Sequence record: MN850609.1
Source of the DNA: Escherichia phage dhaeg
Length of the DNA: 64,000 nt
Reading direction: 5' to 3' (one strand)
A program made the translations under genes and the position numbers. The notes beneath the pieces were generated by a model. It did no database searches and had not been told where the DNA came from. It was given only the letters and a program-made list of their open reading frames with translations. Shown piece by piece: positions 1,403-45,388 of this stretch (the first letter of the stretch is position 1; the number at the start of each line of letters is the position of its first letter).

Positions 1403-2976
1403 TAGAAATCCTCTTCTTCTTCATCTGGGTTTTGGAAACGAGCCTCTTTAGACTCTTCTTCAATTTGCTTAGCTTCTTGATTAATTTCTTCGTCAGTCAT
1501 CTGAAGGAAATCTTTCATAGCCGTTTGATGTGAAATATACTTACCAATAAATGGTTCAGCCATCGTTAGCATATTGATTCTGCGTTCCATGATTTCCGCA
1601 TCTTTCATTTCACTGAAATAGCTATCACGATTGAACGTAACTTTAATATTATTTATTTCCTTTTCCCACTCATCTTCTGTAATAATCTTTTTAAGAATGA
1701 GGTTTGTTTTTAACGGGTCTAGGAAAATTTCTTCAAATTTGTTTTGTAGCTGGCGAATCCATTTAGCAAATTTCAACTCATCACGAGTGATTGCTGTACC
1801 GGCATCAAACATAACGCCTGAATTAGATTCACTAGGGATACGTGACTCTGGAATACGCAGTGCACGATAAAGTGCTGTGCGGAAATAAAGAACATCATCC
1901 ATATCACTCATACCAGTAGCACCTGGCATTGTATCAACTTCTGTTACCGCTTTACCGTCACGACGTTGCAACCAATAGTCTTCAGTCATAGACATATTAT
2001 GTTGTTGGTTTTTAATTTTACCTGTCGAAGCATCATACACCACACGGTTTTTCATCGTGTTCATGATATGTTGCATTTGTGCTGCAGCCTTACGTGAAGG
2101 CATATTACCTGTATCGATATAAAACACACGACGGTCAGGAGCACGTGTAATACGGTAGATGACCATTGCGTCTTCCATCAATTTAAGCTGGTTTGCAGGC
2201 TTAATAGCACGTTGCAAATAGCCAATGATGTTTTTACCGCAACAATCTAATAATCCGGAATGTGCATAAACTACGGCAGCACGAGGAATTTTAACTTTAG
2301 TCCCGGCTGAATAAATGCGTCCATCAGCGCAATAACTTTCATGGCCTGTGTCGTAAACGAAAAACTCGCGATACCCGTCTACAATTTTAACGCCGTCTTC
2401 CATACGTGTAACGATTTCACGAATATATTGGACTTGGCGCGGGTCTAAGCGTCGAAGCTCTTGTACGCCATCTTTCATTTTTTTAGGGTTTATAATTTTA
2501 TGAAAGAATATTCTCGAGTCTACATACCAACGTTGGAAATGGTCAGTGCCTTTACGTTGGAAATTTAAAAGGTTTAAAACTTCACTAAATTCAGCCAAAA
2601 TTTTATCTTTAATTGATTGACTAAATTCCGTGCCGTCTAAATTCAATGCAACTACTTCTTTATCATCCTCGTAGACAATAGCGTCAGACACAATTTCTTG
2701 AACGGCATTGTCGACTTCATAGTTGTTCATCAAATTACGGTAGGTATCAATGAGTTCCCTGGTGTTTTTAACTTCAGGCTCATTACTACCAAACATTTGT
2801 TGCATAAGAGCATTATAAGGAATATTTTGCTCTTGGGTTTCAATTTCGCGAGCGCCATCATCAAGCTTAGGTGCAGTGACAGACTCTAAATTGTTATTTA
2901 ATTGTTGTTTATATTCTTTTTCGTCTTCATTAGCCCATGGCTTAAGAAAACTTAATATTGTATTAAAGTTTGCCAT
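1402..2976 (-). CDS. 20: portal vertex protein gp20
   Basis: 524 aa (same as T4 gp20); synteny 19-20-67. Confidence 0.95.
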
Positions 2977-2998
2977 TAGAGTCTCCGATGAATGGGAT

Positions 2999-3016
2999 AA
3001 GGAGCCGAAGCTCCTT
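2999..3016 (-). promoter_or_regulatory. stem-loop AAGGAGC-CGAA-GCTCCTT in the 19-20 intergenic / gene 20 leader
   Basis: Perfect 7-bp inverted repeat with a 4-nt loop, no U-run afterwards; sits between the late promoter (3025-3032) and the gene 20 SD. Confidence 0.4.
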
Positions 3017-3024
3017 TATAATTC

Positions 3025-3032
3025 TATTTATA
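3025..3032 (-). promoter_or_regulatory. late promoter TATAAATA upstream of gene 20
   Basis: TATTTATA on plus strand, directly after the gene 19 stop. Confidence 0.6.
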
Positions 3033-3033
3033 C

Positions 3034-3525
3034 TCATTCCCACCAATCGATAGCGAACGTAGATTCGAAAGTTTCTACCTCGTTGTTTGAATCCCAATCC
3101 ATCTGGACTTCACCAACGTTAGTAGGCCATAAGCCATAAATTGTAACTTCTTTAGTCACAGTCTTACCATCACGGTGGAACTGTCGAACAATTGCTTGTT
3201 TCTTATATTCTGCAGGTGCAGCACCGGTAATTTCATTGGTCATACCGTGGCAGAGGTTTTGCCAATCGACAATTGCCTGACGGGTGTCATGGGCATCATC
3301 GTTATAAATGGTAATAGTCCAATCATCAAACGTACGGTCGCCAGCTACGTTAATTTTACGGTTCATGTAGCCAACCGGTACTTTTTCTACAATGCCTGCC
3401 GGCATAGGTGCTGCTTTACATTTAAAGCTAAAGTTTTTACCAAGAAATGGAATTTCCACTTCGAAAAGGTTAGGGCGTGCAAAGTCACCTGACTCAAACG
3501 CACGAGTGATATCTGTCAACTCCAT
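3034..3525 (-). CDS. 19: tail tube protein gp19
   Basis: Second ATG chosen (GAGG SD 7 nt upstream); gives 163 aa as in T4; ...TRAFESGDFARPNLF... matches recalled T4 gp19. Confidence 0.93.
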   Translation of the reverse strand: MELTDITRAFESGDFARPNLFEVEIPFLGKNFSFKCKAAPMPAGIVEKVPVGYMNRKINVAGDRTFDDWTITIYNDDAHDTRQAIVDWQNLCHGMTNEITGAAPAEYKKQAIVRQFHRDGKTVTKEVTIYGLWPTNVGEVQMDWDSNNEVETFESTFAIDWWE

Positions 3526-3543
3526 GGGATGCCTCATAAGTCA

Positions 3544-3564
3544 GTTCCTGGCCACACCAGGAAC
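3544..3564 (-). promoter_or_regulatory. 8-bp hairpin GTTCCTGG-CCACA-CCAGGAAC in the gene 19 leader
   Basis: Perfect inverted repeat between the late promoter at 3578-3585 and the gene 19 start. Confidence 0.4.
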
Positions 3565-3577
3565 GTTCTGATTAATT

Positions 3578-3585
3578 TATTTATA
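3578..3585 (-). promoter_or_regulatory. late promoter TATAAATA upstream of gene 19
   Basis: TATTTATA on plus strand in the 173-bp 18-19 spacer. Confidence 0.6.
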
Positions 3586-3620
3586 ACAGTTGATAAATCA
3601 TATTCCTGATAGTTAATCAA

Positions 3621-3710
3621 TCCCAGGCGCAATTCTACGTGATGTACGCTGTAACCAAACCCATGGTATAATGGTTTTAGGTTCTTTATATTACAGCCTG
3701 GGATAATAGA
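3621..3710 (-). repeat. intercistronic palindromic element, copy A (directly after gene 18 stop)
   Basis: mRNA-sense sequence TAA-TCTATTATCCCAGGC...GCGCCTGGGA; arms 3621-3628 / 3696-3703; same start and core as copy B at 28287-28347. Confidence 0.7.
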
Positions 3711-5693
3711 TTATACTAAAGGTCCAATCAATTCATCAAAATCAGCACCAGTGCTCGTTGCAACGAAGTTCAACGTGATGTAGTTAATAGAACGAGAAGG
3801 TTTTACGTATATATTAGCAATAAACTCGTTACGGTCGATAACCGCAGGGGTGTTCACTGTAGTATCACAAACCACACGTCCTTCATAAATCCCACCAAGT
3901 GCCTTAATACCATCTAAGTACTGAGAAACTTCCATACGGAAGCTTGAACGAGTGAAGTTATCGTTCAATTCAAACAGTTTATATTTAGAGGCATCACCGA
4001 TATTTTTCTTAAGCATGTTGAACAGACGGCGAACGTTAATGTGGTCCATCGGAGATGGAACTTTAGTTGCAGTCTTATCACCAAACAATACGAAACCATC
4101 ACCACCAGCAAAACCAACAACTGGGTTAATAGCTTCCTGGTACATGCGGTCGCGTTGTGCTTGGCGTGGTTCAATTGCCAATTTCAGAACGTTAAGAATC
4201 TGACCACGGTTATAACCAGCAGGAGACATCCAAGGCTGAGACACATCATCAGTACGTGCACACAAACCAGCCATATCAGCAGCCAGTGGTACCCAACGGT
4301 TTACGTCATTATATTTGTCATACTGATATTTATAGTTACCATCAATAGCAGCATAAGTGGTACTGATGTTCATGTTGTTGGCATCGAAATTACCAGCACC
4401 GGTACGCCAGTCAATAAGGTTATCTACTGCACGAGTCAGTGGAACGTTAACCAACAGTCCTTTAGGAGGAGAAATAAATGCTAAGCAATCCTGACGTTCA
4501 TCAGCAATACTCACAACGTGTTTCTGAACAGTAGAAGCCACTTCGTCGCCTTCACCAGCAACAGCACCGGCAATAAGCAGGTTAATATGGAGTGCTTCAC
4601 GATCGGCAAACAAATCCCAACCTTGCATCAAATCGCCTGCAGTAACTTTATCGTTAGCAGAAACACCGCCCATCAGATTAATGATACCGCTGAAGCCTTT
4701 AGGCCAGTTCAAAGAGGTAGCAAAAATATAGTTGGAAGTACCTTTAGCGAAATAGTCGTCAAGATAAATGTTATTACCGTAAACGTCTTTTTCACCTTCT
4801 TTGGTAGAAAGTACGACAGATTCTACGATAGCGCCATCGCGACGAACAATAATTGCGTATTGGTCATCTGTTTGCGGTCCGTAATTAAATACTGCCTTGG
4901 CAATAGAAGCACGGGTACCACCGCCAGGATAAATATCCAGCATTTTAGAAGAACCAGCATCATAAGCGGCTTTGGAAACGATTTCTACTTCCAGAGTAGA
5001 ACCAATTTCACCGGGATAAAGAGCCACTACGCCTGGCATAGCAAATTTCTTAAGAGAAGCTTGGAATTCAAGAGAAGTAATAGCTTCTTCACTATTCTCT
5101 GCTTCAGTCAAAAGAATACCGGAATCCGTAACAATTTTACCTACGGTAATAGTACCAGAAACACCGGAAGATGCAGAAGTAACTTCAGCGGTCCAAGCTG
5201 GGCCAAGGGTAGGATACTGGTTTAAAGAACGTGCATAAGCAATAATTTTTGCTGACGGAATAAACACGGAAAGAATTTTACCGTCTGTATCTACAGAAGT
5301 CACACGACCTTCAGATTCGACTACAGTTTGGTTATATTTAATATTGATTTTATCGCCTACTGCATAGTTGGAACCGGCCGTAGTAATAGTGGTCTCAATG
5401 TTACCAGCGATAGGAGATGCGTTTTTAGCAAATTCGCGACTAACAACACGAACTGTGCGAAGGTCATTACCATACTGGAGGAAGTTCATACCAGACATAA
5501 AGTAATCTGCTACTTCGTTATTAGGACCTCCAAATAAATCAACCAGTTCAACTTCATTAGTAATCTGAGTTACCTGGAAAGCAGGGCCCCACTGGAATTT
5601 ACCTACCAGCGCTGCACGACCCGTTGCGTTACGAACGACAGTACTCTGTACGGACGTTTCTTTGAGCTCAATGCCCGGTGATAATAAAGCCAT
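3711..5693 (-). CDS. 18: tail sheath protein gp18
   Basis: 660 aa (T4 659); MALLSPGIELKETSVQSTVV start; synteny. Confidence 0.95.
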   Translation of the reverse strand: MALLSPGIELKETSVQSTVVRNATGRAALVGKFQWGPAFQVTQITNEVELVDLFGGPNNEVADYFMSGMNFLQYGNDLRTVRVVSREFAKNASPIAGNIETTITTAGSNYAVGDKINIKYNQTVVESEGRVTSVDTDGKILSVFIPSAKIIAYARSLNQYPTLGPAWTAEVTSASSGVSGTITVGKIVTDSGILLTEAENSEEAITSLEFQASLKKFAMPGVVALYPGEIGSTLEVEIVSKAAYDAGSSKMLDIYPGGGTRASIAKAVFNYGPQTDDQYAIIVRRDGAIVESVVLSTKEGEKDVYGNNIYLDDYFAKGTSNYIFATSLNWPKGFSGIINLMGGVSANDKVTAGDLMQGWDLFADREALHINLLIAGAVAGEGDEVASTVQKHVVSIADERQDCLAFISPPKGLLVNVPLTRAVDNLIDWRTGAGNFDANNMNISTTYAAIDGNYKYQYDKYNDVNRWVPLAADMAGLCARTDDVSQPWMSPAGYNRGQILNVLKLAIEPRQAQRDRMYQEAINPVVGFAGGDGFVLFGDKTATKVPSPMDHINVRRLFNMLKKNIGDASKYKLFELNDNFTRSSFRMEVSQYLDGIKALGGIYEGRVVCDTTVNTPAVIDRNEFIANIYVKPSRSINYITLNFVATSTGADFDELIGPLV

Positions 5694-5722: not shown

Positions 5723-8032
<2,310 letters not shown>

Positions 8033-30613: not shown

Positions 30614-30644
30614 GTTTTACAAAGGGCTTTAGTGATGATACTAT
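30614..30644 (+). promoter_or_regulatory. T4-type early promoter cassette (GTTTTACA ... TGATGATACTAT)
   Basis: -35-like and extended -10 elements followed by AGGCCTATCAAAAAC leader. Confidence 0.7.
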
Positions 30645-39133: not shown

Positions 39134-39161
39134 TGTACAAGGTCTATAGGTGTGATACTAT
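39134..39161 (+). promoter_or_regulatory. early promoter cassette with stem-loop (GTGTAC ... TACTAT)
   Basis: Perfect 9-bp inverted repeat GGTCTATAG (39141-39149) / CTATAGACC (39158-39166) around the -10. Confidence 0.65.
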
Positions 39162-39411: not shown

Positions 39412-39439
39412 TATACATTCTCGTAAGATATGTTATTAT
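39411..39439 (+). promoter_or_regulatory. early promoter cassette (weak -35 ATATAC, -10 TATTAT)
   Basis: TGTTATTATAGACCTATCAAAACAAATGAGTGAATTGGAGAATAAAATG matches the other cassettes. Confidence 0.5.
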
Positions 39440-39476
39440 AGACCTATCAAAACAAATGAGTGAATTGGAGAATAAA

Positions 39477-39707
39477 ATGAAAGCCATCATGAGTGTTTTA
39501 GCCCTGAGCTTGGTTGCTTTAGCTGCAGTTCCTTTTATTGTTGATGTTGGAGACGAAACACAAGTTGAATCCTCAATCGTTGTCAGTAAAGATGGTACAT
39601 CGGTTAAGATCGGTAATAATCTCCATATGAATCCTAATGGTACTTTAGGTGTTCAGCTCGGTAACACATGTGTAAGCACAACTGGTAAAGTTAATACTTG
39701 CTTCTGA
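39477..39707 (+). CDS. small secreted/periplasmic protein (signal peptide)
   Basis: 76 aa; MKAIMSVLALSLVALAAVPF hydrophobic N-terminus. Confidence 0.6.
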   Translation: MKAIMSVLALSLVALAAVPFIVDVGDETQVESSIVVSKDGTSVKIGNNLHMNPNGTLGVQLGNTCVSTTGKVNTCF

Positions 39708-41224: not shown

Positions 41225-41666
41225 AAAAGTTAAAGAACTATCCGCCGGTATTTTGTTTATGACCGCCGATAAAGAATTGGTTATGGGTCGTGTAACAGGT
41301 TCTCGTAATCCAGAGAATATGCGTCATAAATGGGACATCCCTAAAGGTCATGTCGAACCGGGTGAAGAGCCTATTCAAGCAGCAATGCGTGAAACTGAAG
41401 AAGAGATTGGATTCACTGCATACGATCCTGCGTTCCTGAAAGACCTAGGTGAGTTCAAATATTCTAGCAATAAGAATCTACACCTGTTCTTATATACTGT
41501 GCCTGTCGAACACGAGCAGTTCAAGAATTGCAAATGTACAGCTTACCACACGTTCCCTGATGGTCGTACGATTCCTGAATTTGATGCCTTCGCCTTGATT
41601 AAACGCCCGCAATGGGAATACGTCATGGGCCCGTCGATGTTTAAGGTTTTAGATTCGCTCTTTTGA
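41217..41666 (+). CDS. nudE: Nudix hydrolase NudE (e.1)
   Basis: 149 aa; Nudix box GHVEPGEEPIQAAMRETEEEIGF; immediately upstream of e as in T4. Confidence 0.9.
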   Translation: MSKKVKELSAGILFMTADKELVMGRVTGSRNPENMRHKWDIPKGHVEPGEEPIQAAMRETEEEIGFTAYDPAFLKDLGEFKYSSNKNLHLFLYTVPVEHEQFKNCKCTAYHTFPDGRTIPEFDAFALIKRPQWEYVMGPSMFKVLDSLF

Positions 41667-41696
41667 TATAAATACCTCCTATAATCAGGAGGTATT
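41667..41696 (+). promoter_or_regulatory. late promoter TATAAATA plus SD-sequestering hairpin of gene e
   Basis: TATAAATA 41667-41674; perfect 10-bp stem AATACCTCCT (41671-41680) / AGGAGGTATT (41687-41696) ending at the ATG. Confidence 0.8.
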
Positions 41697-42185
41697 ATGG
41701 ATATTTTTGATATGTTACGTCAAGACGAAGGTCTTGATTTAAATCTTTATAAAGACACCGAAGGTTATTGGACTATTGGTATAGGCCAATTGATTACTAA
41801 GAACCCATCTAAAGATGTTGCTCGCGCTGAACTTGATAAGCTTATGGGTCGAGTTTGTAATGGTCGTATTACTATGGCTGAAGCCGAACAACTCTTTAAT
41901 CGTTCAGTAGAAAATGCCCGTAGAGCTATAACGCGCAATCCTAAATTGAAACCGGTTTATGATGTGCTAGACGAAGTTCGTCGTTGCGCATTGATTAATA
42001 TGGTCTTCCAAATGGGTGAAGCTGGTGTAGCGGGATTTACCAACTCTCTGCGTATGCTCCAACAAAAACGTTGGGATGACGCCGCAGTTAACCTGGCGCA
42101 GTCTCGTTGGTACAAGCAAACCCCTAATCGTGCCAAGCGTGTTATCGCCACCTTTAAAACAGGTACTTGGGCCGCTTATAGATAA
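41697..42185 (+). CDS. e: endolysin (T4 lysozyme)
   Basis: 162 aa; [28 protein letters not shown]...[52 protein letters not shown]. Confidence 0.97.
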
Positions 42186-42190
42186 AAGCA

Positions 42191-42219
42191 GTTTACATCT
42201 CCGGTAGGCATGATACTAT
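42191..42219 (+). promoter_or_regulatory. T4-type early promoter cassette (denV)
   Basis: GTTTAC-17-TACTAT; part of the 63-bp repeat 42185-42247. Confidence 0.75.
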
Positions 42220-42245
42220 AGACCTATCAACTACAGGAGATTAAA

Positions 42246-42662
42246 ATGACTCGTATCAACCTTACCTTAGTATCTGAATTGGCTGACCAACACTTAATGG
42301 CTGAATATCGTGAATTGCCACGTGTTTTCGGTGCAGTTCGAAAGCATGTTGCTAACGGTAAACGTGTTCGTGATTTTAAAATCAGCCCTACTTTTATCCT
42401 TGGTACAGGCCATGTCACATTCTTTTATGATAAGCTTGAATTTTTACGTAAGCGTCAAATCGAGCTTATAGCCGAATGTTTAAAACGTGGCTTTAATATC
42501 AAGGATACTACGGTCCAGGACATTAGTGATATTCCTCAGGAATTCCGTGGTGATTATGTTCTTCACGAAGCTTCTATCGCTATTTCACAAGCCCGTTTGG
42601 ATGAAAAAATTGCACAACGTCCTACCTGGTACAAACATTATGGTAAGGCGATTTATGCATAA
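42246..42662 (+). CDS. denV: endonuclease V (pyrimidine-dimer DNA glycosylase)
   Basis: 138 aa; [33 protein letters not shown] matches recalled T4 DenV (138 aa). Confidence 0.96.
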
Positions 42663-42800
42663 GGGAGCAACCTGGACCTCACAATTCTGTGAGGGACTCC
42701 CGCCAACCTGTAATAAGGTCGAGCCCAAGTGCGGTAATGGGTAAATGCAGAAAGGGACGAATTAATGTGCCAAGGAACGGCCCACAACTAAGAGACAACT

Positions 42801-43328
42801 ATGAAATTTTTAACCCCCATTTATCTAACCTTAATGCACGCCTTCGCTGAACGCGCCATTGAACGTTTAGACTCAGACCAATATACCTGGTATGAACCTA
42901 CTTCAAGAATGCAAGAGTTTGGTACTCTTCGACTTGACGGTGGGCGTCAAACAGGTAAAACAAGTGCCATTGCCCAGTTCGCAGCTGATTGGGTTTCCAA
43001 GGGTAATGATGTGATTGTTATGTCAAGTTCTTCGCACCGGTCACGCGAAATTTGTAATGTAATAAAAAGGGTTTCTAAGGCCCAACCACACCTTCAAGTA
43101 GAAGGTCCTGGGTTTGTTGTATATGATACCGTACGTTCATTTTTAGACGAAGATAACTTCCATAAGTATCGTGGTCTATCAGTTACTCGATTATTGATTA
43201 TTATCGAAGAGCCAATGCGCCTTCCAGCGATGGATAAGTTCTATGAAGCTTACCAGGTAATGATGAATAAATTTATGTGCCAGGGTTCTAAACCTCTGCC
43301 GCTGTTCTTTGTGATAGGAATGCAATGA
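42801..43328 (+). CDS. hypothetical small P-loop-like protein
   Basis: 175 aa; GGRQTGKTS (Walker-A-like) and LLIIIEEP (Walker-B-like). Confidence 0.55.
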   Translation: MKFLTPIYLTLMHAFAERAIERLDSDQYTWYEPTSRMQEFGTLRLDGGRQTGKTSAIAQFAADWVSKGNDVIVMSSSSHRSREICNVIKRVSKAQPHLQVEGPGFVVYDTVRSFLDEDNFHKYRGLSVTRLLIIIEEPMRLPAMDKFYEAYQVMMNKFMCQGSKPLPLFFVIGMQ

Positions 43329-43621
43329 TGACTGATGAAGAGCTTTTTGAGTTCTGTTATTTCTCACGTAAGGTTCGAAGAGAGGACCTTACTACAAATT
43401 TCGAATATGCTTATTTCTATCCATTAGAATATGTATTCATGTCAGGGCCCTTTAAGGGCTCTCGTTTTAGATGTCATGCCCCAAGCATCCGATTAATGAA
43501 ACAGGTTCCTTACTTCACTCTCGAGTTCATCTCTGGGCCGTGTAAGGGTATTATTACTCGCAGTCTCTTGACGTATGACCAAGAGATTCATATGATTTCT
43601 GACTGGAAAAAATATGTCTAA
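43325..43621 (+). CDS. hypothetical protein
   Basis: 98 aa, ATGA-coupled. Confidence 0.55.
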   Translation: MMTDEELFEFCYFSRKVRREDLTTNFEYAYFYPLEYVFMSGPFKGSRFRCHAPSIRLMKQVPYFTLEFISGPCKGIITRSLLTYDQEIHMISDWKKYV

Positions 43622-43832
43622 ATTGACAATTGAAGGCTCTGATGAAGCTCTGAAGAGATTTGTTGAATGGTTTAATGGGCCGGGTGAACAAGACTTTCTG
43701 GAAGTCTGGGACGGCGGCCAATGGAATGGTAAAGAAATTGTTTACCCAACTACTTATATCTCCGTGCAAGGTTGGACTGAAGGCCTTCGTTTGGTGGAAT
43801 ATGATATCGCAACTGGCGAGGAAGTGAAATGA
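43614..43832 (+). CDS. hypothetical protein
   Basis: 72 aa, overlapping starts/stops. Confidence 0.55.
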   Translation: MSKLTIEGSDEALKRFVEWFNGPGEQDFLEVWDGGQWNGKEIVYPTTYISVQGWTEGLRLVEYDIATGEEVK

Positions 43833-44107
43833 TTGAAGACATCAAAGGTTACAAGCCACATACCGACGATAAAATAGGTAAAGTGAATGCCATTAAAGAT
43901 GCTGAAGTTCGATTGGGCTTAATCTTTAAAGCATTAGAAGAAGAATATGTTGAAGCCTTTACATGCTCCGGTGTTGATAAAATGAGTGATGAAGAATTCG
44001 ACCTTACTCATGAACGCCTCGCCCAGATTCGTACGGCAATCGAACGCTTGAAAGAAGCATCCATGTGGGCCTGTCGTTCCGTTTTCCAACCGGAAGAGAA
44101 ATACTAA
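43829..44107 (+). CDS. candidate Acb2 (T4 Vs.4-like cyclic-oligonucleotide sponge)
   Basis: 92 aa, located two ORFs upstream of regB, where vs.4 lies in T4. Tyr8 and Lys23 are 15 residues apart, like the ligand-binding Y11/K26 I recall for Acb2. From recall only. Confidence 0.45.
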   Translation: MIEDIKGYKPHTDDKIGKVNAIKDAEVRLGLIFKALEEEYVEAFTCSGVDKMSDEEFDLTHERLAQIRTAIERLKEASMWACRSVFQPEEKY

Positions 44108-44316
44108 TGAAAATCGAAAGTTTGCAAGAATTCCAACGTATCATCAGTGAAGCCTGTACTGGCTACCACAAATACTTGCTTGACGACCAAATGGCTTGTA
44201 TTGAAGAAGGTGAATTGCAGTACGCAGCCCAGCGCCTTGAACAGGTGAAAGAGTTTTATCCGGTGCTGGTAGAAATTTGTTCTGCTGTCGGAAAACTTAC
44301 CCCATTCCAAGAATAA
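44107..44316 (+). CDS. hypothetical protein
   Basis: 69 aa from the TAATG junction. Confidence 0.5.
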   Translation: MKIESLQEFQRIISEACTGYHKYLLDDQMACIEEGELQYAAQRLEQVKEFYPVLVEICSAVGKLTPFQE

Positions 44317-44320
44317 AGCA

Positions 44321-44349
44321 GTTTACATCTCCTGTAGACGTGGTACTAT
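44321..44349 (+). promoter_or_regulatory. T4-type early promoter cassette (regB)
   Basis: GTTTAC-17-TACTAT. Spacer ATCTCCTGTAG (44327-44337) is perfectly complementary to CTACAGGAGAT (44361-44371), which contains the regB SD. Confidence 0.75.
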
Positions 44350-44377
44350 AGACCTATCAACTACAGGAGATTACAAA

Positions 44378-44836
44378 ATGTCAGAAATTAATTCAGAAGT
44401 ATTCATCCGCCGCAACAAATTACGTCGTCAGTTCGAAACCGAATTTCGTGAACTTAACGCGTCCATCAAAAAAGCCGCCATTAAGAGCGGTGTCCCAGCT
44501 TTCTTTATTAAGTACTCTAATCACTTGTTGGACCGTGCTATCCAACGTGAAATTGACGAAAAATATGTTTTCTCTTTGTTCAAGAAGCTCCATAATCATG
44601 TTAAAGAAATCCATGAATTTTTAATCCAGGAGCCTCTTCCTGACATAGAATCTGAAATTGTCCCAGGTAAAGTGTATCGTCCACTGCGTCTCGAGATTAC
44701 CGATAAAACCTTATGGTTGGGTATGACCGTAGATCGTAAACATCCTGATAAAGGATATTCATTAAAATGTCGTATGGCATTTGTTAATTCTAAACGTTTA
44801 GAAGGTAAAACCAGCACGAAAGTAATCTATCTTTAA
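44378..44836 (+). CDS. regB: RegB site-specific endoribonuclease
   Basis: 152 aa; ...EVFIRRNKLRR.FE.EFR...HLLDRAIQREIDE.YVF.LF... matches recalled T4 RegB (153 aa). Confidence 0.93.
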   Translation: MSEINSEVFIRRNKLRRQFETEFRELNASIKKAAIKSGVPAFFIKYSNHLLDRAIQREIDEKYVFSLFKKLHNHVKEIHEFLIQEPLPDIESEIVPGKVYRPLRLEITDKTLWLGMTVDRKHPDKGYSLKCRMAFVNSKRLEGKTSTKVIYL

Positions 44837-44848
44837 TAATGAGGTCTC

Positions 44849-45388
44849 ATGAAAAAAGTATTAGCCACTTTACTATTGACAGTTAGTATGTCTGCCTATA
44901 GCGTAGAGCCTACTTTCAGTAATGAACAACTCGATAATTTACATTATGCGTATGCTTTCGGTGAACAATACCAAAAGTCGGGAAAGTTCAAAGAAAACCC
45001 TAATCAAAAAGGATTAGGATATATAATGGCCGGATTATTATGGCAGGAATCATCTGCTGGAATTAATCAAGGTTTAAATAAAGATAAGCACCATGCTTAT
45101 GGCATGTTCCAAAATTACTTGCCTACGTTAAGAAGTCGTGTTCAACAGGTAGGTTGGAAGATGTCAGACAAAGAAATAATTCGCATGGTCCAAAAACGAC
45201 AGAACAGTGCCTCTTGGGCCTACATTGAGCTGTCTTATTGGATTGATGTTCACAAAGGTGACCTGAGAAAAGCGATTGCTTCTTATAATGCGGGCTGGAA
45301 TGTCAAAGCAGGCAGTAAATATGCTTCCGAAGTTCTAGAAAAGGCCAATTACCTAAAATCTAAAAAGATGTTTGAGGCGGTATATTAA
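44849..45388 (+). CDS. vs.1: secreted lytic transglycosylase (SLT family), Vs.1 position
   Basis: 179 aa; signal peptide; SLT motifs LWQESSAG, YGMFQ, SYNAG. Confidence 0.8.
   Translation: MKKVLATLLLTVSMSAYSVEPTFSNEQLDNLHYAYAFGEQYQKSGKFKENPNQKGLGYIMAGLLWQESSAGINQGLNKDKHHAYGMFQNYLPTLRSRVQQVGWKMSDKEIIRMVQKRQNSASWAYIELSYWIDVHKGDLRKAIASYNAGWNVKAGSKYASEVLEKANYLKSKKMFEAVY

Follow-up and report, generated by a model that had tools for sequence, protein, structure and literature searches.

Promoter-early stem-loops (PeSLs) were defined in phages RB49 and phi1, together with chimeric cassettes and mini-circles (Arbiol et al. 2010, PMC2839356), and have also been described in T4/PST and KVP40/nt-1 (Comeau et al. 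2014, PMC4122927). Pairs of PeSLs in RB49/phi1 form mini-circles and deletions, the RB49 mini-circles being estimated at ~1 per 1e5 virions (PMC2839356), and the internal-protein locus was previously singled out by Comeau et al. (PMC4122927). Here we examined a 64,000-nucleotide stretch of Escherichia phage dhaeg (sequence record MN850609.1; 'the window' denotes this whole stretch), in which two near-identical cassettes, A and B, lie in front of denV and regB and bracket a 2.1-kb block running from denV to a vs.3 homologue. The phage is T4-like, of the genus Dhakavirus, and across positions 41600-45000 it shares 98% identity with phage dhabil and 90-96% with JS10, Bp7, IME08 and others. The initial annotation had proposed that the block is shuffled as a unit between the two repeats. 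We consider it likely, at a probability of roughly 80%, that A and B are instead paralogous copies of a standard early-gene cassette of the PeSL kind that act as recombination islands, and not the ends of a mobile 2.1-kb element.

The T4 counterparts of the two cassettes were annotated in 1986. In X04567, inverted repeats C/C' and D/D' surround the -10 elements of denV and regB (ORF 61.9, for open reading frame), with the 3' arm over the ribosome-binding site (RBS). The T4 regions share with A and B their orthologous positions, the same gene order, the -10 between the arms and the RBS in the 3' arm. They differ in that T4 has no near-identical direct repeat, its two cassettes being 65-67% alike, and in that ipIII and ipII lie between e and denV. 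The T4 order, e-(ipIII-ipII)-denV-vs.8...vs.3-regB-vs.1, matches the window apart from ipIII-ipII; a rearrangement of the regB/denV order relative to T4 was considered and rejected on this record.

Near-identical early-gene cassettes in front of denV and regB

The two cassettes and the promoters predicted within them are as follows.

42185-42248, + strand: cassette A, the early-promoter/leader region of denV, beginning on the final base of the e stop codon (TAA 42183-42185) and ending with the denV ATG (42246-42248)
44315-44380, + strand: cassette B, the early-promoter/leader region of regB, from inside the vs.3 stop codon (TAA 44314-44316) to the regB ATG (44378-44380)
42191-42219, + strand: predicted sigma-70 early promoter of cassette A, with -35 GTTTAC(A) at 42191-42197, TGn at 42211-42213 and -10 TACTAT at 42214-42219
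44321-44349, + strand: predicted sigma-70 early promoter of cassette B, with -35 GTTTAC(A) at 44321-44327, TGn at 44341-44343 and -10 TACTAT at 44344-44349

A repeat search of the window paired 42180-42246 with 44310-44376 as a direct repeat of 67 nt at 90% ungapped identity. In a gapped alignment 60 of 66 columns match, the differences being four substitutions and one 2-nt indel, and the longest exact runs are 30 nt (42214-42243 = 44344-44373) and 18 nt (42185-42202 = 44315-44332). Both cassettes are on the + strand, directly 5' of the ATG codons of denV (42246) and regB (44378), which upholds, at a measured 90-91% identity, the earlier report of near-identical direct repeats in front of these two genes. 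The sequence quoted for cassette A in that report is 64 nt long and occupies 42185-42248, one base beyond the end then given (42247); that quoted for cassette B is present at 44315-44380.

A and B belong to a larger family. The 17-nt core TACTATAGACCTATCAA has ten copies in the window at up to three mismatches, each of them on the + strand, a count that chance would put at 0.31 (cores at 30639, 30990, 33144, 39156, 39434, 42214, 44344, 48479, 51984 and 53385). In an all-against-all matrix the A/B pair stands at 90%, the next best pair at 78% and most others at 48-70%, confirming that A and B are more alike than any other pairing (90% versus at most 78%). Two sub-families can be told apart by their leaders: ATCAACTA... 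with a spacer that pairs with the Shine-Dalgarno (SD) sequence (A, B, 48479 and 53385), and ATCAAAACAA... (30639, 30990, 33144, 39156, 39434 and 51984). Several cassettes of the second type have a palindrome between the spacer and the -10/+1 region, such as GGTCTATAG...CTATAGACC at 39156, with little predicted SD occlusion.

The order of elements within the cassette is an upstream stop codon, an A-rich tract, GTTTACA (-35), a 16-nt spacer ending in TGn, TACTAT (-10), AGACCTATCAA, GGAG, an A-rich run and ATG, the A-rich tract and upstream stop codon being seen in 10/10 window cassettes. This arrangement of UP element, -35, TGn and -10 is that described for T4 early promoters (PMC2988021). A promoter scan returned TTTACA-16-TACTAT with TG for both cassettes, with 9/12 matches for cassette A. 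Transcription is predicted to start near 42226 in A and near 44356 in B, and GGAG lies at 42236-42239 and 44366-44369, respectively. The late promoter TATAAATA was found in neither A nor B; the internal promoter is of the early sigma-70 type. Each cassette would in this way supply the gene that follows it with an UP-like A-rich tract, a strong sigma-70 promoter, the start region AGACCTATCAA, GGAG and ATG.

The likeness to PeSLs is extensive. Cassettes A and B have sigma-70-like boxes with an A/T-rich tract upstream, which fit the T4/PST consensus TTTACW-N17-TAYWAT (PMC4122927), and a stable stem-loop whose 5' arm lies between -35 and -10, a published position (PMC2839356). Each begins at the upstream stop codon and closes with the SD and ATG of the gene that follows, and the family in the window consists of many same-strand copies in variable (hyperplastic) regions (10 versus 0.31 expected). 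Indel junctions between close relatives fall in the cassettes, as seen for the hybrid cassette A, a vs.3 indel abutting B and a unit at 39412-39704, each described below. At the level of sequence, A and B carry every feature by which PeSLs are recognized. They differ from the published PeSLs in that Dhakavirus has a 17-nt core of its own, TACTATAGACCTATCAA, in that the stem is formed by spacer and SD with no G-run/C-run or U-tract, and in that no A-B recombinant was found among 50,697 phage records.

Recombination junctions in and between the cassettes

The history of cassette A can be read from JS10, in which e is followed by a cassette (TAA-AAGCAGTTTACATCTCC-TAGAATTG...) driving ipIII, then a 399-nt ORF and the denV cassette (...AAATAAGTTTACTTCTCC-TGTAGGCATGATACTATAGACC...). 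In the window, and likewise in dhabil, CLB_P2, Ec2-ASingh and Bp7, a single cassette joins e straight to denV. The left part of cassette A (the e stop codon, AAGCA and GTTTACA) equals the JS10 e>ipIII cassette, and the right part equals the JS10 denV cassette. At three-way informative sites, only the e>ipIII cassette was matched through 42197 and only the denV cassette from 42204, which leaves the following interval for the crossover.

42198-42203, + strand: crossover interval of cassette A, from informative sites (BLAST breakpoints 42202 and 42190); junction of the ipIII+ORF399 indel relative to JS10

Cassette A is thus a recombinant of two JS10-type cassettes, and this recombination explains the 1117-bp ipIII+ORF indel relative to JS10. 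The junction has precisely the chimeric-cassette signature left by PeSL-mediated deletion or insertion (PMC2839356). No homologue of IpII or IpIII was detected by tblastn within the 64-kb window, and with the T4 order e-ipIII-ipII-denV the earlier statement that both genes are missing here stands. Their absence had been taken as a sign that the whole block is shuffled; it does reflect shuffling at this locus. In a metagenome contig, OERO01004249.1, the denV cassette is preceded by another gene, with a remnant of the e 3' end, CTTATAGATAA, in between; this remnant appears to be the scar of an earlier rearrangement at the e/denV junction.

Other junctions also fall at cassettes. Homology to relatives ends or resumes at 42190-42202, 42242 and 44315. 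On the left of denV it restarts at 42190 in JS10, EcWhh-1 and E33, and only at 42242 in IME341, IME08 and AnYang, whose denV promoter is of another kind (63% identical to B). In dhabil, CLB_P2, JS10 and Bp7 a stop-to-stop deletion adjoining cassette B removes the vs.3 homologue (44108-44314). A 293-bp unit of cassette plus ORF at 39412-39704 (core 39434, 231-nt ORF), running from the cassette -35 just past the upstream stop codon to the stop codon of its own ORF, is found in the window, dhabil and CLB_P2 and not in JS10, Bp7, E33, IME341, EcWhh-1 or AnYang; it reads as a textbook insertion of a promoter cassette plus ORFan. The e-tk region as a whole is highly variable among relatives.

T4-type recombination operates on short homologies. 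Shared islands of 60-70 bp between unrelated genes would be open to general homologous recombination, within a genome or between co-infecting phages, and recombination at the cassettes would insert, delete or swap the genes that they flank, cassette A having arisen in this way. Alternatively, the cassettes might be recognized by a dedicated enzyme, a site-specific recombinase or nuclease, for the movement of gene cassettes, and Arbiol et al. speculated that the stem-loop is targeted by a DNA-binding protein (PMC2839356). The core is highly conserved over ten copies, although a role in the promoter and start region accounts for that conservation, and there is no recombinase gene in the neighbourhood. 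The junctions vary from event to event (42198-42203, 42242, 44315 and 39411/39704), which fits an origin driven by homology with no fixed cleavage site. On these grounds a site-specific recombination site was rejected, and we regard such an enzyme as highly improbable.

The cassettes mark modular exchange, as the hybrid A and the breakpoints at 42190-42202, 42242 and 44315 indicate, and this much of the shuffled-module claim survives; the A-B interval does not behave as one unit. In a comparison with T4, identity is 91% over 42176-42795, which takes in cassette A, denV and most of the vs.8 leader, with flanks at 69-74% (e 74%, vs.1 69%, regB not detectable by blastn; the RegB protein is ~60% identical to T4-type RegB). 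The T4 counterpart is 1703-2324 of the T4 stretch compared. This suggests that Tequatrovirus-like and Dhakavirus-like lineages recently exchanged a ~620-bp denV module whose left edge lies at the cassette. Farther right, 42703-44109, from the vs.8 leader to vs.4/Acb2, is 89% identical to the unclassified coliphage pEC-M719-6WT.2 (2227-3641 of its compared stretch), whose denV and regB regions are ~70% identical; it appears to be a second inter-lineage mosaic module, one that carries the gene against the cyclic-oligonucleotide-based antiphage signalling system (anti-CBASS). A variable slot directly after the denV stop codon (42662) holds 0-2 extra ORFs in relatives, with homology back at 42663 or 42703, and the centre of vs.8 (42847-43299) is replaced by an unalignable allele in Bp7 and IME08. 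The Citrobacter phage Moon and the Klebsiella phage Boboto have no denV, and in them the vs.8 leader comes directly after ipIII or an internal head protein gene; denV and its cassette thus form a module present or absent at the genus level. With internal junctions at 42662/42703, 42847-43299 and 44107, the A-B interval consists of at least three separately exchanged pieces.

The proposal that the repeats are the ends of a 2.1-kb denV-vs.3 module that is excised, duplicated or shuffled as a unit can draw on their direct orientation, 90% identity and 30-nt exact run, on the mini-circles and deletions formed by PeSL pairs in RB49/phi1 (PMC2839356) and on the accessory nature of all the block genes. 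We searched for its products with synthetic junction queries representing the deletion (e-hybrid cassette-regB) and the duplication (vs.3-hybrid cassette-denV) at a cut-off of at least 80% query coverage. Neither A x B junction was found at this coverage among the 50,697 phage records. Exact junction patterns gave 0 matches in IMG/VR, where the native e-cassette-denV positive control also gave 0. The 27-nt core was found in IMG/VR in four known Dhakavirus genomes only, and further in two short metagenome contigs in which denV cassettes follow other upstream genes with no A x B junction. Block and order were also constant, the block being present in 10/10 Dhakavirus relatives examined and T4 having the same order with cassettes ~65% alike. 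No relative examined lacks or duplicates the exact interval, and natural junctions also fall at the internal seams (42662/42703, 42847-43299 and 44107) of what is a mosaic of at least three sub-modules. Relatives that have the block without the repeat similarity, which the initial annotation had itself named as counting against its proposal, were found as well (IME341, IME08 and AnYang). Movement of the block as a unit between its repeats was accordingly not borne out, and we consider the proposal quite improbable. It is nonetheless plausible, by analogy with the published PeSL pairs, that A x B recombination would occur at low frequency in lysates.

The predicted hairpin over the Shine-Dalgarno sequence and the origin of the A/B likeness

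In both cassettes the SD region CTACAGGAGAT can form a hairpin with the 5' part of the spacer, ATCTCCkGTAG, to which it is complementary.

42197-42241, + strand: hairpin of cassette A, 5' arm ATCTCCGGTAG at 42197-42207 and 3' arm CTACAGGAGAT at 42231-42241, with one G.A mismatch
44327-44371, + strand: hairpin of cassette B, 5' arm ATCTCCTGTAG at 44327-44337 and 3' arm CTACAGGAGAT at 44361-44371, with perfect pairing

GGAG lies inside the stem of each hairpin, and the loop, 23 nt in both, holds the -10 and predicted +1. RNA reading through from upstream is predicted to fold at -16.4 kcal/mol (z -2.6) for A and -19.2 kcal/mol (z -3.0) for B, and cassettes of the window, T4, HY126, Moon and ZX14 range from -16 to -23 kcal/mol (z -2.6 to -5.3). 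RNA starting at the predicted +1 is unstructured (-1.0 and -1.4 kcal/mol). The computed probability of an unpaired SD was 0.25 in the read-through RNA against 0.45 in the own-promoter RNA for A, and 0.00 against 0.63 for B.

We compared the regions upstream of denV and regB in T4, HY126, pEC-M719-6WT.2, ZX14 (Kanagawavirus), Moon (Moonvirus), Boboto (Jiaodavirus) and Clarke_MM3. The layout is constant across these phages and the paired bases differ in a compensated manner. Compensated stems among the compared cassettes include TCTCCTGTAG/CTACAGGAGA; for regB, TCTCCTCTAG/CTAGAGGAGA in HY126, TCTCCTTTTAG/CTAAAAGGAGA in ZX14, TCTCCTGTAAG/CTTACAGGAGA in Moon and TTCCTCTTGAC/GTTAAGAGGAG in T4; and for denV of HY126, TTCCTCCAAG/CTTGGAGGAA. 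An alignment-free duplex test set the pairing of each spacer arm to its own SD region beside its pairing to those of 18 other cassettes. The mean duplex energy was -12.8 kcal/mol with the own SD and -8.6 kcal/mol with those of the others, a value reached by 0/20,000 permutations, and the outcome was unchanged when near-identical cassettes were removed; the covariation of the pairing spans seven genera. RNAalifold returned no consensus structure on a MAFFT alignment of 14 cassettes because the 3' arms are out of register in that alignment. The covariation indicates that the cassette hairpin is probably under selection, and the regularity with which the 3' arm is the SD would point to a translational role at the RNA level.

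The hairpins may alternatively be intrinsic terminators or attenuators that shield each gene from transcription coming from upstream, with the repeats serving as terminator-promoter units. In X04567 the T4 equivalents bear the label 'put. stem-loop structure; pot. transcription terminator', and in RB49 the stem-loop of one PeSL lowered downstream lacZ expression as much as rrnB T1 did (PMC2839356), although such a drop would equally be expected from SD occlusion. Neither the A nor the B stem is followed by a U-tract (GGAGAUUAAAAUG), and a terminator scan flagged neither cassette; a classical terminator role is therefore less likely here. The loops of 23 nt also speak against it, as does the coincidence of the 3' arm with the SD in nearly all genera, an overlap that terminators do not need. 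We judge the terminator reading to be rather unlikely.

A different precedent is offered by T4 e, soc and I-TevI, in which the RBS is reportedly hidden in a hairpin in long transcripts and freed when a promoter inside the hairpin starts the RNA. The SD in a hairpin and an internal-promoter RNA without the 5' arm are the points of likeness, the T4 side being as reported and the side of A and B as predicted. The reported T4 genes differ in using a late internal promoter, which makes translation late-only, whereas the promoters of A and B are of the early sigma-70 type and would limit translation to immediate-early transcripts. By this mechanism, read-through RNA from upstream would fold so that the hairpin hides GGAG from ribosomes and probably from RegB, and RNA from the cassette's own promoter would start in the loop, lack the 5' arm and be open for translation. 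DenV and RegB would then be translated mainly from their own immediate-early transcripts. RegB is known to cleave its own SD, and GGAG can be shielded from RegB by secondary structure (PMC3014915); these T4 data are compatible with an arrangement that leaves open just the short transcript begun at the cassette's own promoter. Generalized to the Tevenvirinae, the cassette stem-loop may be a conserved, covarying translational insulator and not a terminator. With each early promoter inside the hairpin that covers the SD of its gene, denV, regB and the remaining cassette genes would have their own immediate-early transcripts as sole templates for translation, and read-through (delayed-early) RNA would be untranslatable and protected from RegB cleavage at GGAG. 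The 60-70-bp unit would double as a portable recombination handle, a gene on the move taking its full control of transcription and translation along. We put this forward tentatively, at somewhat less than even odds.

The likeness of A and B to one another has a narrower distribution than the hairpin. The identity between denV and regB cassettes is 90-92% in the window and Bp7, 65-67% in T4, and 61-75% over T4, HY126, ZX14, M719 and Clarke. T4 has the same gene order with cassettes ~65% alike, and the arrangement therefore predates the repeat similarity, which appears to be a lineage-specific overlay on it. Cassette A is 88-90% identical to the promoter/inverted-repeat C region of T4 denV. Cassette B is kept in all Dhakavirus relatives and shares 82-83% identity with its regB counterparts in HY126 and Moon, a finding that softened an earlier idea of B as a denV-type cassette copied in front of regB. 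The near-identity of A and B would reflect a paralogous exchange of cassette sequence, together with shared functional constraint, in one Dhakavirus lineage.

Could the similarity be purely convergent, a product of selection for a maximal early promoter, the same start region and an anti-SD spacer with no recombination between cassettes? Most shared positions do lie in the -35, TGn, -10, family core, GGAG and anti-SD arm, and orthologous cassettes retain private differences across genomes. Against this, the layout of functional elements at denV and regB recurs in five other genera at just 61-75% identity, and the compensated, different stems found elsewhere show that function does not dictate the A/B sequence. 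The non-motif left flank of A, AAAGCA, was moreover demonstrably brought in by crossover with another cassette. Convergence alone is in our estimation unlikely.

Several observations weigh against the account of A and B as exchanged, hairpin-gated cassettes. The promoter activity and +1 positions are predictions. The A hairpin has an internal G.A mismatch and a modest gap in SD exposure (0.25 versus 0.45), and SD sequestration is predicted in only about half of the ten window cassettes. A wobble comparison of sense and antisense strands gave 13 versus 15 G.U pairs and summed energies of -255 versus -246 kcal/mol, and does not tell an RNA from a DNA hairpin. The PeSL papers treat the stem-loop as a terminator or attenuator and not as a translational gate (PMC2839356, PMC4122927). 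With respect to exchange, cassette A shares 80% identity with the regB cassette of HY126 and just 67% with the denV cassette of that phage (over ~60 nt), and an ancestral A/B exchange may have run in either direction. Across Dhakavirus genomes the orthologues of A and those of B stay distinct at diagnostic positions, and there is therefore no sign of ongoing homogenisation between A and B.

Genes of the interval and implications

The genes in and around the interval, all of those in the block being accessory, are as follows.

41697-42185, + strand: e (lysozyme), upstream of cassette A; Pfam Phage_lysozyme 3.3e-13 and annotation in relatives
42246-42662, + strand: denV (endonuclease V, pyrimidine-dimer glycosylase); Pfam Pyr_excise 1.3e-14, 91% nucleotide identity to T4 denV
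42663-42800, + strand: non-coding vs.8 leader, ultraconserved from 42703; right anchor of the variable slot after denV
42801-43328, + strand: vs.8 homologue, 175 aa; phrog_1488, 2.8e-69, annotated as vs.8 in JS10 and Bp7
43325-43621, + strand: vs.7 homologue, 98 aa; phrog_2049, annotated as vs.7 in JS10 and Bp7
43614-43832, + strand: small ORF, 72 aa; phrog_1986, kept in relatives
43829-44107, + strand: vs.4/Acb2-like gene, 92 aa; Pfam Acb2_Tad1_hairpin 3.5e-16, 67% amino acid identity to T4 ORF 62.5
44107-44316, + strand: vs.3 homologue, 69 aa; tblastn with T4 ORF 62.2, 41% amino acid identity, E 3e-15
44378-44836, + strand: regB (sequence-specific endoribonuclease); Pfam REGB_T4 2.2e-69

The vs.8 leader (42663-42800, especially 42703-42790) contains invariant runs (ACCTGTAATAAGGTCGAGC, GCGGTAA, GGGT, GTGCC and GGCCC) shared by T4, Dhakavirus, HY126, pEC-M719, ZX14 and Moon, the adjoining genes being just 65-75% identical. 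It shows no codon-like variation, no thermodynamic signal (z -0.07) and almost no covariation, and its 5' hairpin occurs in two compensated versions with closing stems GGGAG...CTCCC and AAAGG...CCTTT. Homology with many relatives restarts exactly at 42703, and the leader therefore doubles as a recombination anchor. Rfam gave no family at gathering level in 41500-45000, the vs.8 leader included; a group II intron match at 43338-43420 inside vs.7 scored 24 bits, far under the 40-bit threshold, and was taken as chance. To the right of regB, the vs.1 homologue (44849-45388, lytic-transglycosylase-like) bears the label 'endoribonuclease' or 'T4 RegB-like' in some records, for example dhabil_170 (7042-7581 of the dhabil stretch) and Moon gp124 (4464-5012 of the Moon stretch), which is probably an annotation carried over from the adjoining regB.

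The findings at A and B do not overturn current understanding; PeSL-mediated modular shuffling is already known, and the locus is a clean example of that phenomenon and not a new one. The modestly new element would be the covariation evidence for SD occlusion over termination. For phage engineering and therapy, the A/B repeat could give rise, in production lysates, to low-level deletion variants that have lost denV and acb2. The mosaic that holds the accessory genes for anti-defence (Acb2/vs.4) and repair (denV) is made of pieces swapped between genera at conserved non-coding anchors. The locus provides a base-resolved natural case of cassette-mediated gene shuffling in a further T4-like genus, with a hybrid cassette and a 6-nt crossover interval at the classic internal-protein locus, and the covariation suggests another look at the PeSL stem-loop, as an element that occludes the SD and not as a terminator.

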